From Bacteroidales bacterium (GTDB lineage: Bacteria > Bacteroidota > Bacteroidia > Bacteroidales > Paludibacteraceae): a DNA stretch of 64,000 nucleotides. The stretch lies in the NCBI GenBank assembly GCA_015061145.1, contig SUXD01000004.1:36931-100930 (forward strand), written 5' to 3'. The notes beneath the pieces were generated by a model that was not told the DNA's origin, did not search any database, and saw only the letters and a program-made list of their open reading frames with translations. Each line of letters starts with the position of its first letter. Positions within the stretch are counted from its first letter, which is position 1. Below are positions 4,128 to 54,714 of the stretch, one piece after another. The translations under genes and the position numbers were made by a program.

Positions 4128-5357
4128 ATGGTAACACTGACGGCACCCAAAAATATTGCAGGAAAAATTAACCTGCCCGCCTCCAAAAGCATCAGCAACA
4201 GAGCGCTCATCATCAAAGCGCTGTGCGGCGATACTACGCCCGTCGAAAACCTCTCGGAATGCGACGACACACATGCCGTAACCAAGAATATGGCATCGCT
4301 GGCATCGGGCGGAAAATCATTCGACATAGGAGCGGCAGGAACGGCCATGCGCTTCCTCACAGCATATCTCGCCAACCGAAAAGGAGAATGGGAAATAACC
4401 GGCAGCACACGCATGAAACAGCGTCCCATCAAAATTCTGGCAGATGCGCTGAATCTGTTGGGAGCTAACATCGAATACACCGAGAAAGAAGGATTCCCGC
4501 CTCTACATATCTACGGCAATCCGCTCACAGGAGGAGAAATAGAACTGGAGGGGAACGTAAGCAGCCAATATATTTCGGCGCTGCTCATGATTGCACCATA
4601 TATGCAAAAAGGGCTGACAGTGAACCTGAAAGGAAAAGTCATTTCCAAACCTTACATCCTGCTGACCCTGAAAATGATGGAACAATTTGGCGTGAACTAT
4701 ACCTGGACAAAAAATAAAATACGCATCGAAAAACAGCAATATACGCCACGCCCATACAAAGTGGAGTCGGACTGGTCGGCCGCATCATACTGGTACGAAA
4801 TACTGGCTATATGCGGCGAAGGAGAAATTTTCCTGACCGGTCTCACCAACCGCAGTTCGCAAGGCGACGCAAAAGTGGCGGAATTGTTTTCCATGCTAGG
4901 CATCGAGACTGTCTATTCATCAGAAGGCGCCCTGCTGCGCTACACCGGAAAACTGGCTGAACGAATGATTTACAACTTCGTGGAACAGCCCGACCTGGCA
5001 CAAACCTTTACCGTGACCTGCTGCATGCTGAATATACCGTTTGCTTTTTCCGGACTACAAAGTCTGAAAATAAAGGAAACAGACCGTATCGCCGCTCTGA
5101 TAACCGAAATGCGGAAAACTGGCTTTGTATTGCGCGAAGATGAAGAAGGCACGCTGATATGGGACGGCACAAAAGTTAAAGCAGAAAAAGAAATAACCAT
5201 AAAGACATACGACGACCATAGAATGGCAATGGCCTTTGCGCCAATTTCGCTAAAAGTTGTAAATTTGCAGATAGAAAACCCCGAAGTGGTGAGCAAATCA
5301 TACCCCACTTTCTGGGACGATTTGAAAAGTGTAGGATTTAAAATAACAAATATATGA
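4128..5357 (+). CDS. aroA: 3-phosphoshikimate 1-carboxyvinyltransferase (EPSP synthase)
   Basis: LPASKSISNRALI N-terminal motif, GAAGTAMRFL, KETDRIAA and DDHRMAMAFAP signatures. 409 aa. Confidence 0.9.
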   Translation: MVTLTAPKNIAGKINLPASKSISNRALIIKALCGDTTPVENLSECDDTHAVTKNMASLASGGKSFDIGAAGTAMRFLTAYLANRKGEWEITGSTRMKQRPIKILADALNLLGANIEYTEKEGFPPLHIYGNPLTGGEIELEGNVSSQYISALLMIAPYMQKGLTVNLKGKVISKPYILLTLKMMEQFGVNYTWTKNKIRIEKQQYTPRPYKVESDWSAASYWYEILAICGEGEIFLTGLTNRSSQGDAKVAELFSMLGIETVYSSEGALLRYTGKLAERMIYNFVEQPDLAQTFTVTCCMLNIPFAFSGLQSLKIKETDRIAALITEMRKTGFVLREDEEGTLIWDGTKVKAEKEITIKTYDDHRMAMAFAPISLKVVNLQIENPEVVSKSYPTFWDDLKSVGFKITNI

Positions 5358-8970: not shown

Positions 8971-9930
8971 ATGCAACAAATCGTACGATTCATAAAAAAC
9001 TGGACGCTGCCTATCTCCATGTTTGCAGGTGTGGCAGGATATTTTGTCTATTCTAATCTGCCATTTCTGGCATGCACCAAACCCTTGGCGAACGAAACGG
9101 TAGGCTACATCCAGCCGTTGCTCATCTTCTGCATGCTGTTCCTCACATTCTGCAAAGTGAAGCCCTCCGATCTGCACTTTCGCACATGGTATCTTTGGCT
9201 TAGCCTGATACAAACCGTATCTTTCGGAGCGCTGGCAATGATACTCCATTTCGTCCCCGACACTTCGTGGCGGCTCATCATCGAGAGCGCAATGCTCTGC
9301 CTCATCTGCCCAACTGCCACGGCCGGCGCCGTTGTGACAATGAAACTGGGCGGCAATGCGGCAAGTCTCACCACCTATACCATTTTCATCAATCTGGTTG
9401 TAGCCATTGTCATACCGCTGCTTGTGCCCATTGCGCACCCGCAGGATGGCATCACCTTTCTGCCCGCCTTTCTGCTGATTATCCGCAAAGTTTTCCCGCT
9501 GCTCATCTGCCCCTTGCTGGCAGCATGGATTGTGAGATACTGTCTGCCCAAAATACATGAGAAACTGCTTTCTTGCAAGGATTTGGCATTTTATTTATGG
9601 GCCGTCGCACTGGCCATCGCCATAGCTGTCACTTGCAAAGCGCTGGTACACAGTCACGAGAATTTCGCACGGATTGCCGCCATGGCTGCCACTACACTTA
9701 TTTGCTGCCTCTTGCAGTTCTACATCGGCAGAAAAATTGGCGCACGCTACGGCGAACGCATCGAGGGCGGACAATCCATCGGACAAAAAAACACCGTTTT
9801 CATCATTTGGCTCGGCTACACCTTCATGACACCCGTGACCGCCATCTCAGGAGGGCTTTACAGCATCTGGCACAACACCATCAACAGCTATCAATTGTGG
9901 CAAAAACGAAAGTCCGACCAAGGAAAATGA
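8971..9930 (+). CDS. Polytopic membrane transporter, bile acid:Na+ symporter (SBF)-like fold
   Basis: About 9-10 hydrophobic segments. CPTATAGAVVTMKLGGNAASL resembles the SBF family signature. Substrate unknown. Confidence 0.55.
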   Translation: MQQIVRFIKNWTLPISMFAGVAGYFVYSNLPFLACTKPLANETVGYIQPLLIFCMLFLTFCKVKPSDLHFRTWYLWLSLIQTVSFGALAMILHFVPDTSWRLIIESAMLCLICPTATAGAVVTMKLGGNAASLTTYTIFINLVVAIVIPLLVPIAHPQDGITFLPAFLLIIRKVFPLLICPLLAAWIVRYCLPKIHEKLLSCKDLAFYLWAVALAIAIAVTCKALVHSHENFARIAAMAATTLICCLLQFYIGRKIGARYGERIEGGQSIGQKNTVFIIWLGYTFMTPVTAISGGLYSIWHNTINSYQLWQKRKSDQGK

Positions 9931-43884: not shown

Positions 43885-45606
43885 CTAAAACCCTATTCGG
43901 GTGTATGAATGATGGCTGAGTTTCTCATTTTTGCACAATTCGAGCACACTTTCCAACGACAGTTTACTTCCGCCAACAATCTCGTTCATGGTCATTTTGC
44001 GAACAATATTCTCTATCTCACCGCCCGAAAACTGATATTTTTCGGCCAAAATGCGATAGTCGTCGTCTGTCAGTCCTGGCAAACGGTCGCGCCAAATGGC
44101 TATCTGCGCTTGCGGTGCCGGACGCTCGAACTTAATTTTGAAAAGAAAACGGCGCTCGAAAGCGGCATCGAGATTGTCCACAAGGTTGGTGGTGGCTATC
44201 AGTATGCCGTCAAGTTTCTCGAGTCCTTCCAATATAATATTTTGGATGGCGTTCTCGGTTTGGGCCACACTCGAAGCATCGGAGTCCTTTCGTTTGCCGA
44301 AGAGTGCGTCGGCCTCGTTGAAGAGCAGGATAGGCGCTTTTTTCTCTACCTTGCACATCTCGGCGTAATCGGTGAAAATACGCTTGATTATTTTCTCGCT
44401 CTCGCCAAACCAGCACGATTTGCTGGCAGCTATGTCAACATGATACACCTTGCGCCCCGTACGACGCGCTATCTGCATCACTGTTTCGGTTTTGCCGGTG
44501 CCAGGTGTGCCGTAGAATATGGCAGCCACCCCTCTTGGCAACGATTTCTGCTCGAGCCGCTTCTGCAAATTTCGGAAATTCGTCTCTAGCAGACTGTTTT
44601 CGAAGAAACTGATCTGACTGTTGAGCTCGCCCTCAAAATAAAGTTGTTTTTGCGGTATTTTCTTGTAGTCCAGCAACTTTTTAGAACTCTGCTTTTTGAA
44701 GAAAAGCTTTACATCATCCTCCATAAATAACTCGCGTCCTTTGTCTGTCAGCACCAATTCCGAATCAGCCAGAAAGTCGGCTCCTACTTTCTCAATCAAA
44801 CCGGCTTTCTGCAAAGCATTTCTGTCAGTCATCAGTTCGCGGGCCACCTTCATGCGACAAGACGAACGGTCGTAAATGTCGTTCAATGTAGATTCTACAT
44901 TTGTATTGCCGTATCGCTGCGACGAAGCTTTCATCGTATCATCACAGATTTCGTAAAACAAAGTGCGGTCTTCGATGCCTATTCTATTGTCAATAAGTTT
45001 TTTAATCATGCTTACTTGCGGATTTTCATCCTCCAATGTCTGCACATCTTCAAACAATATGTCAGTCAAATCGCGGTCTTCAATCATATCCGACACCTTT
45101 GAACAGAAGTCATAACGATCGAGCTGCATCTGATTGCCCAAAGAAATTTGAGGTTTGTTATCCAGAATGCAACGAATGACTTCGTCATAGATATAAAAAA
45201 ATTCTGAGCCACGAATTCGTTTCTTTCCCATGTAATGTTTTTCCTGCAATTCCTTTATTGAACGGATAATAGGAAAAGTGTTCACACCTCTGATACTGAA
45301 AAATCGCTGCAAATCAGAAATGCCTATATTGTTATCGCCATCGCCTACTTGAAGCGAAAAAATAGCGATAAATGCCGCTGCCTGCAACGGCGTACATTGC
45401 ATATATTCCGCCACTTCGAGCAACGCATTTTTTATTATTGCCAATTTTTCCTTTGTAAAACGATTTCTCTTCCCGACTTTTACCGGCTCTTGAGGCGCAT
45501 CAAACTGCTCTGGATCAATCAGATTCAGTATTGTCGTCTCCGACGAATCCATTTCTATTGACAAAATACGAAATGTTTTCAACCAATTTTTCTCCATATT
45601 TTCCAT
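43885..45606 (-). CDS. Classic-clade AAA+ ATPase with an uncharacterised N-terminal region of about 330 aa
   Basis: The C-terminal 230 aa carry Walker A GTPGTGKT, Walker B LLFNEAD, sensor-1 IATTN and the second-region-of-homology Arg (AFERRF). The N-terminal part has no motif I recognise. Confidence 0.8.
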   Translation of the reverse strand: MENMEKNWLKTFRILSIEMDSSETTILNLIDPEQFDAPQEPVKVGKRNRFTKEKLAIIKNALLEVAEYMQCTPLQAAAFIAIFSLQVGDGDNNIGISDLQRFFSIRGVNTFPIIRSIKELQEKHYMGKKRIRGSEFFYIYDEVIRCILDNKPQISLGNQMQLDRYDFCSKVSDMIEDRDLTDILFEDVQTLEDENPQVSMIKKLIDNRIGIEDRTLFYEICDDTMKASSQRYGNTNVESTLNDIYDRSSCRMKVARELMTDRNALQKAGLIEKVGADFLADSELVLTDKGRELFMEDDVKLFFKKQSSKKLLDYKKIPQKQLYFEGELNSQISFFENSLLETNFRNLQKRLEQKSLPRGVAAIFYGTPGTGKTETVMQIARRTGRKVYHVDIAASKSCWFGESEKIIKRIFTDYAEMCKVEKKAPILLFNEADALFGKRKDSDASSVAQTENAIQNIILEGLEKLDGILIATTNLVDNLDAAFERRFLFKIKFERPAPQAQIAIWRDRLPGLTDDDYRILAEKYQFSGGEIENIVRKMTMNEIVGGSKLSLESVLELCKNEKLSHHSYTRIGF

Positions 45607-45666: not shown

Positions 45667-45701
45667 CAAAGGTAAGACAACATGCTGCCAAATTGCGGCA
45701 G
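45667..45701 (-). promoter_or_regulatory. Promoter/operator of the AAA+ ATPase gene: 17-nt inverted repeat, 10-nt spacer, -7 box
   Basis: Reading the minus strand: CTGCCGCAATTTGGCAG (45701-45685), 10 nt, TACCTTTG (45674-45667). The same layout occurs at 47575-47609. Confidence 0.5.
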
Positions 45702-45731
45702 TAATATGGAAAGATTCAATAAAAAATTTTT

Positions 45732-46253
45732 TCACAATATCTCCCTCGCAATCCAAGCGCAAGCTTCAGCGTCGGCAAGGGCGTGATGATGGTTTTGGAG
45801 GATGTAGCCGCAAGCGGCTGAAACGGTGTGCAGCTGGTGGTTGGGAATCGTGCGGCCGAAATGCCGGCGCGAAGCTATGCAAGTGCACAAAAACGTATAT
45901 TCCGGATAATCCATCTGATAAGACTGAAACACTGCCCGCAGACAACTCTCATCGAAAGCCTTGTTGTGCGCCACAAATGGCACGCCGCTATCGGCAAAAC
46001 AAGGAAAAGTGCGCGACACCTGCGCCATCGCGCGCCGCCACACTTCGGGAAACAGCGGCGCACTATCGGTATCCGCAGCCGACAAACCGTGAACCTCCTG
46101 GCAGAAAATGGCATAATAGTTGGGCGTAGGCTTTATCAAACTATAGAAAGAATCGACAATTTCGCCGCCTTTCACCACTACGATGCCCACACTGCAAACG
46201 CTGGAACGGCGACCGTTGGCCGTCTCAAAATCTATCGCCACAAAATTTTTCAT
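45732..46253 (-). CDS. DEDDh (DnaQ-like) 3'-5' exonuclease
   Basis: ExoI AIDFETAN, ExoII AHNKAFDESCL and ExoIII HHALADAEA. 173 aa. Confidence 0.8.
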   Translation of the reverse strand: MKNFVAIDFETANGRRSSVCSVGIVVVKGGEIVDSFYSLIKPTPNYYAIFCQEVHGLSAADTDSAPLFPEVWRRAMAQVSRTFPCFADSGVPFVAHNKAFDESCLRAVFQSYQMDYPEYTFLCTCIASRRHFGRTIPNHQLHTVSAACGYILQNHHHALADAEACAWIAREIL

Positions 46254-47182
46254 TTACGGTTATTGCTATAGATATTCAACATTTTTTGAACCTCGTTCTT
46301 GAACTCATTGCGAAGCTTTTTGGGCGAAAGGACTTCAACCTGCGAAAGATAGGAAGCCAGCACTTGCTTAAATTCAAAATTAGGCACCAGATTAAACTCC
46401 AACACCGAATATTCCGGCGTTCGTTTTATTAATTTTTGCGACCGATGCAGTGGCAAACTCAGAAAATAATCCACTTGGTCGGCATTTATCTTCACACAAA
46501 TGCGCTCAGGCTTTTTCTGCGAAAGCCCTACACCATAAATATTATCAAAATATTTTTTAGGGTCTACGCTCGAAGGCACGATATAGACTTCCTCTATTTG
46601 CCGCAAGTCTTCTATTCTGTCGAGCGCAAAAATGCGTATATCCTTTTTCTCCTCAACATATCCAAGCATGTACCACCGTTGCTTGAACACTTTAAGGCAA
46701 TAGGGATGAACATGGTATGTATTCGGCTCTTTGCCGAAACTATGGTGCACTATCTCTAACTTCCGTTTGTCGCGCAGACTTTTTATTATTATTGTCAGAT
46801 ATTTTTGTCCGGCAGGTATTTCTTCGAAAAAAATGCTTTGCTGCACATCCTTGTCCCTGCTCTCCATAATCATACTGTTCACCGAAAGAGCATTGAAAAG
46901 CCAACTGTGCAAACCTTTTAAAGCCATATTATCGCCGCCGTTCTCGATGAAATAGGTTCCCTTAGAGCGGTTGCAAGCTATATTGACACCGAAAAGCTCT
47001 TCGGCCGCCACACGCCATCTGTGAAAAGTGCGTTCCGGAAGACTGCCCTCATTTTCTTCGTTCAAAACGCTAGCGCTCCATCTCCGGTCTATCTCCCCGC
47101 GGGTTATCTCGCCCGATGCATTTATCACCTCCACTAACCAGATATAGCAGTTGAACAATGTTGATGCAGATGTTTTTTTCAT
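46250..47182 (-). CDS. WYL-domain transcriptional regulator (wHTH-WYL-WCX architecture)
   Basis: N-terminal wHTH-like region (LFNCYIWLVEVINASGEITRGEI), WYL core (HPYCLKVFKQRWYMLGYVEEKKDIRIFALDRI) and a C-terminal extension. Its stop overlaps the exonuclease start (ATGA). Confidence 0.75.
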   Translation of the reverse strand: MKKTSASTLFNCYIWLVEVINASGEITRGEIDRRWSASVLNEENEGSLPERTFHRWRVAAEELFGVNIACNRSKGTYFIENGGDNMALKGLHSWLFNALSVNSMIMESRDKDVQQSIFFEEIPAGQKYLTIIIKSLRDKRKLEIVHHSFGKEPNTYHVHPYCLKVFKQRWYMLGYVEEKKDIRIFALDRIEDLRQIEEVYIVPSSVDPKKYFDNIYGVGLSQKKPERICVKINADQVDYFLSLPLHRSQKLIKRTPEYSVLEFNLVPNFEFKQVLASYLSQVEVLSPKKLRNEFKNEVQKMLNIYSNNRK

Positions 47183-47295
47183 GATGATGCATTTAAGTTA
47201 AATTGCTAAAGATATTTAATGTCACCAGATTTGCATTCAGAAAATCTATCTGATTCCGAATTTCTTGCGTTGCGTCATTCGGATATTGCAATTTT

Positions 47296-47535
47296 TCATC
47301 TTCTTTTATGTTTATCGGGTACGACAATTTCAAGATGATTAGCACCATAAAACGCAGGGTCATTTTCAATTTCTGTCAAATATTCCTGTTCTCTTTCTTT
47401 TGAATATGCCAATGCTAAATCTGTATTCCAGTCCAACAGTTCCCAATAATCCCAGTCGGCTTCTTTCATCATAAGGTAATCTTCATCTGACAATGGCAGT
47501 TTGATTTTTTCGAAATCTTCTTTTGTAAGTTTCAT
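47296..47535 (-). CDS. Hypothetical small acidic protein (79 aa)
   Basis: ORF starting MKLTKEDFEKIKLPLSDEDYLMMKEADWDYWELLDW.... The ATG lies 40 nt downstream of a TAatTTTG box. No recognisable domain. Confidence 0.45.
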   Translation of the reverse strand: MKLTKEDFEKIKLPLSDEDYLMMKEADWDYWELLDWNTDLALAYSKEREQEYLTEIENDPAFYGANHLEIVVPDKHKRR

Positions 47536-47574
47536 AACAGTAGTATTTAATTGGTTAATAATCTTCCTTTTTGT

Positions 47575-47609
47575 CAAAATTAGTAAAATCAACTGACAAA
47601 TTGCGGCAG
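47575..47609 (-). promoter_or_regulatory. Promoter/operator of the small-ORF/WYL/exonuclease unit
   Basis: Reading the minus strand: CTGCCGCAATTTGTCAG (47609-47593), 10 nt, TAATTTTG (47582-47575). The repeat is 16/17 identical to the element at 45685-45701, with identical spacing. Confidence 0.5.
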
Positions 47610-47673: not shown

Positions 47674-48393
47674 ATGGAAAAATGGTATTCACGCACCGAA
47701 CTTTTGTTGGGTAACGAAAAAACAATCCTTCTGCAAAACGCCCATGTAATGGTAGTGGGCATTGGCGGCGTAGGCGGCATGGCTGCCGAAATGCTATGCC
47801 GGGCCGGCATAGGCGAAATGACAATAATCGATGCCGACACTGTTTCTGTCACCAACCTCAACCGACAAATCATTTCGTTGAACGACAACGTAGGGAAAAC
47901 AAAAGCCGAATGCTGGGCAGAACGGCTGAAAAAAATAAATCCTGCGCTGAAACTCAATGTTTTTGCAGCATATATGAACGAAGAAAACATGCTTAATTTC
48001 TTCGAAGGGAAAAAGATAGACTTTGTAGCCGACGCTATCGACACCATCGCGCCAAAAATAGCGCTGATTGAACATTGCATCAAAAACAACATCCCTATCA
48101 TATCGAGCATGGGGTCGGGAGCAAAAACCGACATCACAAAAATATGCCTCACCGACATTGCCAAAACATACAACTGCCGACTGGCGAAAACCGTAAGGCA
48201 ACGACTGGCAAAAGATGGATTCAGACATCTGCCTGTTGTATTCAGCAGCGAACTGCCCGACAAAAATGCCATTATCAGCGTTGAAAACGAGAAAAACAAA
48301 AAATCGACAACCGGCACCATATCATACATGCCAGCTGCCTTCGGATGCTTTATGAGCGCATATATCATCAAAAGACTGTCATCCGACGACTAA
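47674..48393 (+). CDS. tcdA: tRNA threonylcarbamoyladenosine dehydratase (ThiF/E1-like)
   Basis: RTELLLGNEK...VMVVGIGGVGGMAAEMLCRAGIGEMTIIDAD nucleotide fold and NRQ motif. 239 aa. Confidence 0.85.
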   Translation: MEKWYSRTELLLGNEKTILLQNAHVMVVGIGGVGGMAAEMLCRAGIGEMTIIDADTVSVTNLNRQIISLNDNVGKTKAECWAERLKKINPALKLNVFAAYMNEENMLNFFEGKKIDFVADAIDTIAPKIALIEHCIKNNIPIISSMGSGAKTDITKICLTDIAKTYNCRLAKTVRQRLAKDGFRHLPVVFSSELPDKNAIISVENEKNKKSTTGTISYMPAAFGCFMSAYIIKRLSSDD

Positions 48394-53724: not shown

Positions 53725-54714
53725 ATGAAAATAGGCAACATAGAATTTGGCAAATATCCTCTTTTTCTGGCTCCGATGGAAGATGTAACCGATCCGGCAT
53801 TCCGTCAGTTTTGCAAGCGTTTTGGCGCTGATATGCTTTATACCGAATTCATTTCGGCTGATGCGCTTATCCGTGATATTTCTGCCACTACCCGCAAACT
53901 CACCATTTACGACAGCGAGCGCCCTGTAGCGATACAACTTTATGGTCGCGAACCGGAAGCTATGGCCGAGGCGGCAAAAATTGCTGAAAGTGTTCATTCC
54001 GAGATAATCGACATAAATTTTGGCTGCCCCGTGAAGAAAGTGGCGGGCAAAGGCGCTGGAGCCGGTCTGTTGCGCGATGTGCCAAAAATGCTCGAAATAA
54101 CACGCCAGGTAGTGAATTCCGTTTCGGTGCCTGTAACTGTGAAAACCCGTTTGGGATGGAACGACGACGAAAAAATCATCACTCAAATAGCTGAACCGCT
54201 GCAAGATTGCGGCATTCAGGCGCTTACCATACATGGACGGACAAGGGCGCAGATGTACATCGGCAATGCCGACTGGACATTGATAGGCGAGGTGAAAAAC
54301 AATCCTCGCATCCATATTCCGATTATCGGAAACGGCGACGTATGCACGCCCGAACGCGCTAAGGAGTGTTTCGATCTTTATGGTGTGGATGCTGTCATGG
54401 TGGGAAGGGCTTCTATCGGCAAGCCGTGGGTTTTTGAGGAGATGAAGCACTACCTCTCTACGGGCGAACTGTTGCCGCCAAAATCATTTGCTGCTTGTGT
54501 GGATATTCTGAAAGAATATATAGGCAAGAGCATCGAATGGGTAGGCGACGAGCGGCGCGGTATTGTGCATGTGCGTCGTCATTTGGCTGCCTCGCCTATC
54601 TTCAAAGGCATTCCCGACTTTAAACCTACGCGTATCCGCATGCTTCGTGCCGATACACTGGCGGAATTGTTCGATATTTTTGAAGAAATAGAGCGGAACT
54701 TTATACGTGAGTGA
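53725..54714 (+). CDS. dusB: tRNA-dihydrouridine synthase
   Basis: LAPMEDVTDPAFR, IDINFGCPVKKV and TIHGRTR motifs. The ATG at 53725 is chosen because the longer ORF overlaps the divergent U32 gene. Confidence 0.9.
   Translation: MKIGNIEFGKYPLFLAPMEDVTDPAFRQFCKRFGADMLYTEFISADALIRDISATTRKLTIYDSERPVAIQLYGREPEAMAEAAKIAESVHSEIIDINFGCPVKKVAGKGAGAGLLRDVPKMLEITRQVVNSVSVPVTVKTRLGWNDDEKIITQIAEPLQDCGIQALTIHGRTRAQMYIGNADWTLIGEVKNNPRIHIPIIGNGDVCTPERAKECFDLYGVDAVMVGRASIGKPWVFEEMKHYLSTGELLPPKSFAACVDILKEYIGKSIEWVGDERRGIVHVRRHLAASPIFKGIPDFKPTRIRMLRADTLAELFDIFEEIERNFIRE

Follow-up and report, generated by a model that had tools for sequence, protein, structure and literature searches.

The question raised by the locus described here is why two promoters carry nearly the same 17-nucleotide (nt) inverted repeat at the same distance from a -7 box of the TAnnTTTG type, which protein reads the repeat, and whether that protein turns its targets on or off. 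The locus belongs to a 64,000-nt stretch of a Bacteroidales genome (assembly GCA_015061145.1, contig SUXD01000004.1, positions 36,931 to 100,930 of the forward strand), here called the window and numbered from its first letter. Both promoters are on the minus strand, one ahead of a gene for an AAA+ ATPase and the other ahead of a unit composed of a small open reading frame (ORF), a gene for a WYL-domain regulator, and a gene for a DEDDh exonuclease. The explanation favored here, with a probability of roughly 0.55, is that the 17-mer serves as the operator of an autoregulated, DriD/DdaA-like activator, probably responsive to single-stranded DNA (ssDNA), which acts on both units.

Two promoters that share a 17-mer

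Operator 1, CTGCCGCAATTTGGCAG (45685..45701, minus strand), is located in the promoter of the AAA+ gene and forms a perfect 5-bp dyad, CTGCC/GGCAG, with a TGCC-N7-GGCA core. The -7 box of this promoter, TACCTTTG (45667..45674, minus strand), lies 10 nt 3' of the operator, and the AAA+ ATG follows 60 nt further. Operator 2, CTGCCGCAATTTGTCAG (47593..47609, minus strand), is located in the promoter of the small-ORF/WYL/exonuclease unit; its -7 box, TAATTTTG (47575..47582, minus strand), is again 10 nt 3' of the operator, and the ATG of the small ORF follows 39 nt further. Both boxes fit the TAnnTTTG consensus. An earlier sequence-only reading of this DNA had described a 17-nt repeat exactly 10 nt upstream of such a box at both minus-strand sites, with 16/17 identity between the two repeats, and both observations hold. 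It had also assigned CTGCC/GGCAG arms to the two sites; this is correct for site 1, but at site 2 one arm has a mismatch (GTCAG).

The two sites resemble each other in the palindrome and the box only. Their flanks and 10-nt spacers (catgttgtct at site 1, ttgattttac at site 2) are unrelated, and thus a recent duplication of a longer promoter segment is ruled out. Nor, as the earlier reading had already argued, is the pair a product of chance. When up to two mismatches are allowed, operators 1 and 2 are the only matches to the 17-mer in the window; when up to three are allowed, there are 3 matches versus 0.22 expected from shuffles, a number reached in none of 100 shuffles. A relaxed scan for an operator plus a box returns the same two sites only, among the 66 TAnnTTTG boxes of the window. 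Chance and a dispersed repeat are both ruled out, since there are only two sites in 64 kb and outside the window the motif keeps to promoters and WYL loci instead of being scattered. The third match, ATGCCGCAATCTTGCAG (54199-54215), has 3 mismatches, lies within a coding region without a -7 box, and looks like chance. The same may be said of CTGCCCCTTGCTGGCAG (9507-9523), which has perfect arms and lacks both the T-rich center and a -7 box. A sigma-54 promoter (TGGCAC-N5-TTGC), a candidate prompted by the GGCA/TGCC sequences, is rejected because the order and spacing of its elements do not fit in either orientation.

A conserved layout and its predicted regulator

The window pair belongs to a layout that is conserved across Bacteroidales: CTGCCA-N5-TGGCAG, 10 nt, and TAnnTTTG. 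The nearest WYL homologues are only about 47% identical to the window protein, and several of their loci keep this layout. In one (L008), CTGCCATAATTTGGCAT, 10 nt, and TAATTTTG precede a small-ORF/AAA+/WYL/exonuclease operon; in another (L006), TTGCCGCGATTTGGCAC, 10 nt, and TAATTTTG precede a WYL gene adjoining GmrSD. A scan of 185,579 species-representative genomes with TGCCNNNATTTGKCA-N11-TANNTTTG yielded at least 120 matches. Among the matches listed there is no locus of the window's own species, and their titles are mostly Bacteroidales or other Bacteroidia, with a minority of unrelated taxa. The 120 loci of 8 kb taken from the matches listed contain a WYL homologue in 44 cases, an AAA+ homologue in 17, and the exonuclease in 20; 69 of these 120 motif-selected loci have no WYL, AAA+, or exonuclease gene within 8 kb. 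The same pattern has 2 matches in a collection of 2.9 million viral contigs, which rules out a phage-borne element.

The spacing was examined in a set of 80 metagenomic loci picked solely by similarity to the WYL protein, and thus not biased by the motif. When CTGCC-N7-GGCAG (up to 2 mismatches) is followed by TAnnTTTG in this set, the offset is 10 nt in 55 cases, 11 nt in 3, and any other value in at most 2. When the offset is shifted as a control, 0 to 3 operators are counted, versus 69 with the true value. About 95% of sites keep the fixed offset. The position matrix built from this set reads C-T-G-C-C-[A/G]-y-r-w-T-T-T-G-G-C-A-g, that is, CTGCCA-N5-TGGCAG or, equivalently, TGCC-N7-GGCA. 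The arms of the dyad are its most conserved positions; the center is T-rich and asymmetric, and the sequence of the 10-nt spacer is not conserved. An analysis that begins with the operator separates a chance background from about 100 real sites, at which the -7 box is perfect in 60 and has one mismatch in 40. At 71% of sites, an ORF of at least 100 amino acids (aa) begins within 120 nt in the direction of the promoter, versus 25-30% in controls.

In ordinary promoters of the same loci, represented by 581 TAnnTTTGC boxes, the distance to an upstream TTTG has a sharp maximum at 20 nt (12.7%), which corresponds to the canonical -33 position. The TTTG embedded in the operator has a gap of 14 nt instead, a value that occurs among these boxes at background frequency. 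The operator promoters lack the canonical -33 TTTG, whose place would be about 19-20 nt upstream of the -7 box. Both window sites have the left arm (CCGC) at this place, and their only TTTG is at the 14-nt gap. The difference between the 14-nt gap and the 20-nt peak rules out the TTTG of the motif as an ordinary -33 element. Because the canonical -33 position falls within the left arm, the operator is predicted to replace the -33 element rather than to sit between -33 and -7, where the earlier reading had placed it. It would span about -39 to -23, with its center at about -31, and adjoin the -7 box.

The presumed binder of both operators is the 310-aa WYL regulator encoded between them (46250..47182, minus strand). 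A Pfam search of this protein finds a WYL domain (PF13280, E 1.4e-16, residues 128-194) and a WCX domain (PF25583, E 1.3e-7, residues 226-302), both above the curated cut-offs, and no match to a helix-turn-helix (HTH). An AlphaFold2 (AF2) model (pLDDT 84.8) has the order winged HTH (wHTH), bundle of three helices, WYL domain, and WCX domain, with helices at residues 6-23, 28-36, and 50-64, a β hairpin at 67-80, and then helices at 86-107, 111-116, and 124-138. Regulators of the wHTH-WYL-WCX kind comprise activators that are themselves activated by ssDNA (DriD, PafBC, SiwR, and DdaA) and repressors that are released by it (CapW and BrxR) (PMC11662680). In Foldseek, the predicted model aligns over its full length with DriD, PafBC, CapW, and BrxR, and full-length DriD ranks first (E 3e-14), followed by the other three in that order. 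A profile search of PDB sequences gives E values of 8e-14 for PafBC, 2e-12 for DriD, 7e-4 for CapW, and 0.03 for BrxR. Around the WYL motif, the basic and aromatic residues K167, R169, W170, Y171, and R189 are invariant or nearly so in the family. The window sequence FKQRWYMLGY (family consensus FKQRWYxLA) aligns with GYRWHVRAW of CapW in a HMMER alignment to 9c5g; the RWHVR motif of the repressor family is not present in the window protein, which has RWYM instead.

Direct recognition of the operator by this family finds its strongest evidence in the covariation of residue 51, at the start of the recognition helix, with the type of half-site. In the unbiased set, WYL proteins with Arg51 (PERTFH) accompany the TGCC/GGCA operator (A type) at 41 loci, a B-type operator at none, and no operator at 12. 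Proteins with Ser or Cys at this position (PESNFH, PECTFH) accompany the B type, CTTTCA-N5-TG(A/G)(A/G)AG at the 10-nt offset, at 12 loci, the A type at none, and no operator at 6. Thus, the covariation has no exceptions. R51 is invariant in the A-type members and is Ser or Cys where the half-site G changes; R55 is not invariant, and many members have N55. When compared by sequence alone, R51 and R55 of the window protein (PERTFHRWR) have an i/i+4 spacing like that of R37 and R41 of DriD, whose helix-3 arginines read the guanines of the half-site (PMC10853764). Direct read-out would predict just such a pattern, in which Arg changes to Ser or Cys as the G of the half-site is lost. It is very probable, then, that the WYL protein binds the 17-bp operator. 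The earlier proposal of a single regulator for both units, the WYL protein encoded between the sites, gains support from this covariation, from the recurrence of the motif beside WYL homologues, and from the counts of downstream genes given below.

The second operator type is found upstream of WYL genes at nine of the loci (L003, L005, L153, L157, L162, L164, L170, L189, and L201), often as two tandem promoters. One of these, L162, which encodes a Ser51 protein, has a perfect CTCCCG-N5-TGGGAG dyad ahead of an AAA+ gene.

In the proposed mechanism, the 17-mer would be the operator of the regulator encoded at 47182-46250, a predicted homodimer in which each wHTH would read one TGCC/GGCA half-site. 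By analogy with DriD and DdaA, the ligand-bound regulator, with ssDNA as the probable ligand, would occupy the operator and recruit or stabilize RNA polymerase at promoters that lack a -33 element. The regulator's own operon (the small ORF, the WYL gene, and the exonuclease gene) would then be switched on, giving positive autoregulation, and the AAA+ gene would be switched on together with it. The exonuclease, whose translation would be coupled to that of the regulator, could exert negative feedback by trimming the ssDNA signal. We infer activation rather than repression, ssDNA as the signal, and the feedback by the exonuclease, as well as the physical binding of the WYL protein to the operators. 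The choice of ssDNA as the signal follows from the characterized relatives, which sense ssDNA through the WYL domain.

Activation weighed against other explanations

The sequence-only reading had left the direction of regulation open; the evidence favors activation, as in DriD or DdaA, and given that the protein binds, activation is somewhat more likely than not. In both sequence and fold, the WYL protein resembles DriD and PafBC far more than CapW and BrxR, and it has RWYM in place of RWHVR. In addition, the invariant 10-bp offset and the missing -33 element mirror DriD, whose boxes lie at an identical distance from the -10 sequence in promoters without a -35 element, and whose complex with DNA recruits RNA polymerase (PMC13004042). 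The geometry of the operator also equals that of the DriD operator, CGAC-N7-GTCG (PMC10853764), and of the DdaA operator, CGWCA-N5-TGWCG (PMC12392091).

A possible, if less probable, explanation keeps the same protein and the same operator and reverses the sign. A repressor of the CapW/BrxR type would occupy the -33/-7 region in unstressed cells; the binding of ssDNA or another ligand to its WYL domain would release it from the DNA, and its own operon and the AAA+ gene would be de-repressed. This mode is documented for wHTH-WYL-WCX proteins (PMC11662680), CapW and BrxR are significant structural matches in Foldseek, and the operator overlaps the core promoter, which is a classic position for a repressor and the one from which CapW and BrxR act. 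The resemblance to DriD and PafBC, the absence of RWHVR, the lack of a -33 element, and the box geometry shared with DriD and DdaA all speak against repression, as does the spacing, since a steric block needs no invariant 10-bp offset, yet the offset is fixed at nearly all sites. Several findings weigh against the favored explanation and must be set beside these. Apart from the overlap with the core promoter, the -7 boxes depart from the consensus by at most one mismatch at the roughly 100 real sites and might drive transcription without an activator; and many homologues of the WYL protein are embedded in defence islands (GmrSD, McrBC, restriction-modification [R-M], AbiH), as BrxR and CapW are. 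About one fourth of WYL loci have no recognizable operator. The covariation of residue 51 with the half-site rests on few clades, which are not phylogenetically independent. Finally, none of four AAA+ homologues chosen regardless of WYL genes (4/4) has an A-type operator: two (L213 and L214) have other dyads at the same offset, and two have nothing recognizable. Control of the AAA+ gene by the exact A-type motif is therefore not universal.

Two further explanations dispense with the WYL protein. In one, which is unlikely, the palindrome would either act as a promoter element itself, for example as a -33-like TTTG that sigma reads at a displaced position, or bind another host factor, and would travel with the genes. 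The TTTG at motif positions 10-13 is indeed conserved beyond the needs of the dyad (position 11 is T in 74%, and its mirror position 7 is A in 3%), and the 69 motif-selected loci without a WYL, AAA+, or exonuclease gene among the matches listed would also be expected. Neither a sigma element nor an unrelated factor, however, would be expected to yield half-site changes that track changes in the WYL recognition helix without exception; in addition, the dyad arms are the most conserved positions, the 14-nt gap of the embedded TTTG is at background in ordinary promoters with their peak at 20 nt, and WYL genes are by far the commonest genes downstream. In the other, which is very improbable, site 1 would be the intrinsic terminator hairpin of the WYL-exonuclease operon or some other RNA structure, and its likeness to site 2 would be incidental. 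Site 1 lies 31 nt 3' of the stop codon of the exonuclease gene, and a scan for terminators reports a stem of 6 bp and a loop of 5 nt at 45701-45685. As RNA, though, site 1 folds weakly and no better than shuffles (-7.9 kcal/mol, z -0.73), and site 2 does not fold (z +0.75), so that a terminator or RNA hairpin is ruled out. Moreover, site 2 is upstream of its operon, in a divergent intergenic region, and conservation follows the fixed distance to the downstream -7 box rather than a T-tract.

A sister strain also bears on the terminator. Its contig (L001) is from the same species, is 98.4-99.5% identical to the window, and encodes the same WYL protein. At the place of window positions 45712-45714, it carries a 2.95-kb insert (L001 4297-7246) that lies between the stop codon of the exonuclease gene and a point 11 bp upstream of operator 1. 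Operator 1 and its box remain with the AAA+ gene, now 2.95 kb from the exonuclease gene, which argues that the operator is part of the AAA+ promoter and not a terminator of the upstream operon. Operator 2 is identical in the two strains, and there is no operator within the insert.

Target genes and related systems

The activator explanation, again the favored one, would place four genes of the window under the regulator, of which the WYL gene has been described. The AAA+ gene (43885..45606, minus strand) encodes 573 aa (Pfam AAA E 1.6e-21; AF2 pLDDT 84). The N-terminal 340 aa of the product have no family match; in the AF2 model, they contain two predicted helix-helix-helix plus β-hairpin units, which are winged-helix-like and precede a classical-clade AAA module. 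The best Foldseek matches of the protein are Rpt, Vps4, ATAD1, and p97, and the module is unfoldase-like. The AAA+ family has at least about 8,000 homologue clusters, and many of its members are unlinked to WYL genes and stand alone in housekeeping contexts, for example beside recJ, dprA, or rimM. The exonuclease gene (45732..46253, minus strand) encodes a DEDDh (DnaQ-like) 3'-5' exonuclease of 173 aa and overlaps the WYL stop codon. Its product matches RNase_T and Rv2179c-like in Pfam, epsilon-like exonuclease models in NCBIfam, and DEDDh in PADLOC. The exonuclease is 52-72% identical across loci whose adjacent WYL protein is only 32-45% identical, and thus appears to be under much stronger constraint than its regulator. 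The AAA+ ATPase and the exonuclease match defence models weakly, below curated cut-offs. A known defence system is rejected because the PADLOC/NCBIfam matches are sub-threshold or partial only, with IetA/IteA as the match of the AAA module and PDC-S48 and DEDDh as those of the exonuclease.

The first gene of the WYL unit would be a 79-aa ORF (47296..47535, minus strand) that has no family match and is uncertain as a real gene. Its frame is kept in the sister strain, in which it has a clustered variable patch and 84.6% aa identity, versus 99.7% for the WYL protein. It may be a real gene, a leader peptide, or a diversifying protein.

Across the loci sampled, 192 operator-promoters have a downstream ORF. 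The commonest is a WYL gene (44), an AAA+ gene is second (22), the exonuclease gene comes directly after 4, and 10 precede a family of 235-263 aa without a Pfam match. The remaining genes are diverse and include GmrSD, PLD, an SNF2/DpdE-like helicase, a PD-(D/E)XK nuclease, short PolIII-alpha-like proteins, RtcB, a metallophosphatase, an RNA-repair HAD domain, DUF2130, and a tubulin/FtsZ-like protein. The classical SOS genes recA, uvrA, and ssb were not seen among these targets, which represent a sample of loci rather than a whole-genome regulon. WYL homologues adjoin GmrSD, McrBC, R-M, AbiH, and PLD genes, some of which carry the operator. Single WYL loci hold up to five operator-promoters, and the order operator, AAA+, WYL, exonuclease recurs in operons. 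Judged from these gene orders, the two-promoter arrangement of the window is a minimal version of a recurrent, putative local regulon whose core is WYL, AAA+, and exonuclease.

As predicted, the system is a member of the known wHTH-WYL-WCX kind and would work most like DriD and DdaA. DriD, the ssDNA-activated regulator of Caulobacter crescentus, has the same domain order as that predicted here and is the best full-length structural match. In both systems the operator is pseudo-palindromic, with GC-rich half-sites of 4 bp around an AT-rich center of 7 bp (TGCC-N7-GGCA here), and is placed at one fixed distance from a -10-type element in promoters without a -35 or -33 element; both also have a site in the regulator's own promoter. 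However, sequence identity is 15-16%, the half-site sequences differ, and the host promoter is of the Bacteroidetes TAnnTTTG type rather than the sigma-70 type. The targets of DriD are didA, bapE, recJ, and dnaG, whereas the predicted targets here are the AAA+ ATPase, the DEDDh exonuclease, and genes that vary among islands. For the window protein, activation and ssDNA binding are assigned by analogy.

DdaA shares the 5-N5-5 geometry (TGCCA-N5-TGGCA here), and one Bacteroidales AAA+ promoter (L213) bears a literal CGACA-N5-TGTCG box. Both regulators belong to lineages without LexA-type regulators, and both regulons mix nucleic-acid repair and defence genes. The DdaA motif, though, lies about 50 bp upstream of the point where transcription begins, in contrast to a center at about -31 adjoining the -7 box here, and no recA, uvrA, or ssb promoters are among the sites sampled. 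PafBC, which acts by sigma adaptation in mycobacteria, is the best sequence-profile match; both proteins have an RWY-type WYL motif, and in both systems the -35 gives way to a promoter-specific element directly upstream of the -10 (PMC11804915). PafBC differs in that it is a heterodimer or a fusion and uses a single HTH on a non-palindromic -26 element; the operator here is a dyad, which implies a homodimer that uses both of its HTHs. CapW and BrxR, repressors of CBASS, BREX, and other defence systems, share the superfamily and the fold, have a palindromic site in the promoter of their own or an adjacent operon (here binding is predicted), and are likewise frequent in defence islands. They differ from the window protein in their weaker sequence similarity (E 7e-4 to 0.03) and in having the RWHVR motif that it lacks; the rigid spacing from operator to box and the missing -33 element here point to a stereospecific contact with RNA polymerase.

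What appears to be new is the Bacteroidales WYL family, its operator and the integration of the latter into a TAnnTTTG promoter, the core regulon, and the pairing of helix residue with half-site. No published description of this operator or regulon in Bacteroidales was found in a literature search that did not cover all journals. A wider and more tentative reading takes the family and its operator as a transcription system of Bacteroidales that responds to DNA damage or ssDNA, an analogue of DdaA with a core set of genes, a strain-variable set of repair and anti-phage genes, and a code that pairs helix residue with half-site (Arg51-TGCC, Ser-TCCC, Cys-TTTC). If this were true, the core set would be the WYL regulator itself, the DEDDh exonuclease, and the classical-clade AAA+ unfoldase. 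An SOS-like role of the family in Bacteroidales is plausible, although unproven, because Bacteroidales lack LexA and both groups of non-canonical Bacteroidetes SOS repressors (PMC8565304), and because in Moraxellaceae the WYL activator DdaA has taken the place of the SOS system and drives genes of anti-phage defence as well (PMC12392091).

The operator is defined by sequence, and the operator, its cognate regulator family, and the predicted regulon are each directly testable. If the regulator is an activator, the mechanism of DriD and DdaA would extend to a phylum whose primary sigma factor and type of promoter are different, and the locus would offer an example of class-II-like activation at TAnnTTTG promoters. 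The rigid module of operator plus box might then be used as an inducible promoter part for Bacteroides genetics, and the pairs of helix residue and half-site would be ready material for specificity swaps. If it is a repressor instead, the operator would still be an element, widespread and not described before, that controls genes of defence islands in gut Bacteroidales. This order dominates the human gut, and to our knowledge the regulation of its responses to DNA damage, to antibiotics (metronidazole and quinolones), and to prophage induction is poorly understood.

Several minor observations concern the neighborhood and the other loci. The insert of the sister strain, which has no counterpart in the window, is an R-M cassette with a fragment of an EcoRV-like endonuclease, two Dam-type methyltransferases, and a 236-aa ORF. 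The two strains thus differ by an indel of this cassette between the exonuclease and AAA+ genes. A ThiF-family gene (47674-48393, plus strand) is divergent from the WYL operon and begins 65 bp beyond operator 2, which could in principle also affect the divergent promoter. Of the two AAA+ loci with other dyads, L213 (4945-4979) has GCGACA-N5-TGTCGT, identical to the DriD/DdaA consensus, 10 nt from a -7-like box of the AAA+ gene, and in L214 (about 4940-4975) the dyad is GTGCG-N7-CGCAC, again at the 10-nt offset; a divergent WYL gene, whose product has an ARRTF recognition helix, lies 1.2 kb away. These dyads suggest further specificity classes. PolIII-alpha-like genes of 435-665 aa, with PHP, NTPase, and finger domains, lie directly behind operator-promoters in two WYL loci (L156 1526-3523 and L169 7004-8362). 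The first of these loci also contains two WYL paralogues and five operator-promoters, two of which are divergent and 18 bp apart.

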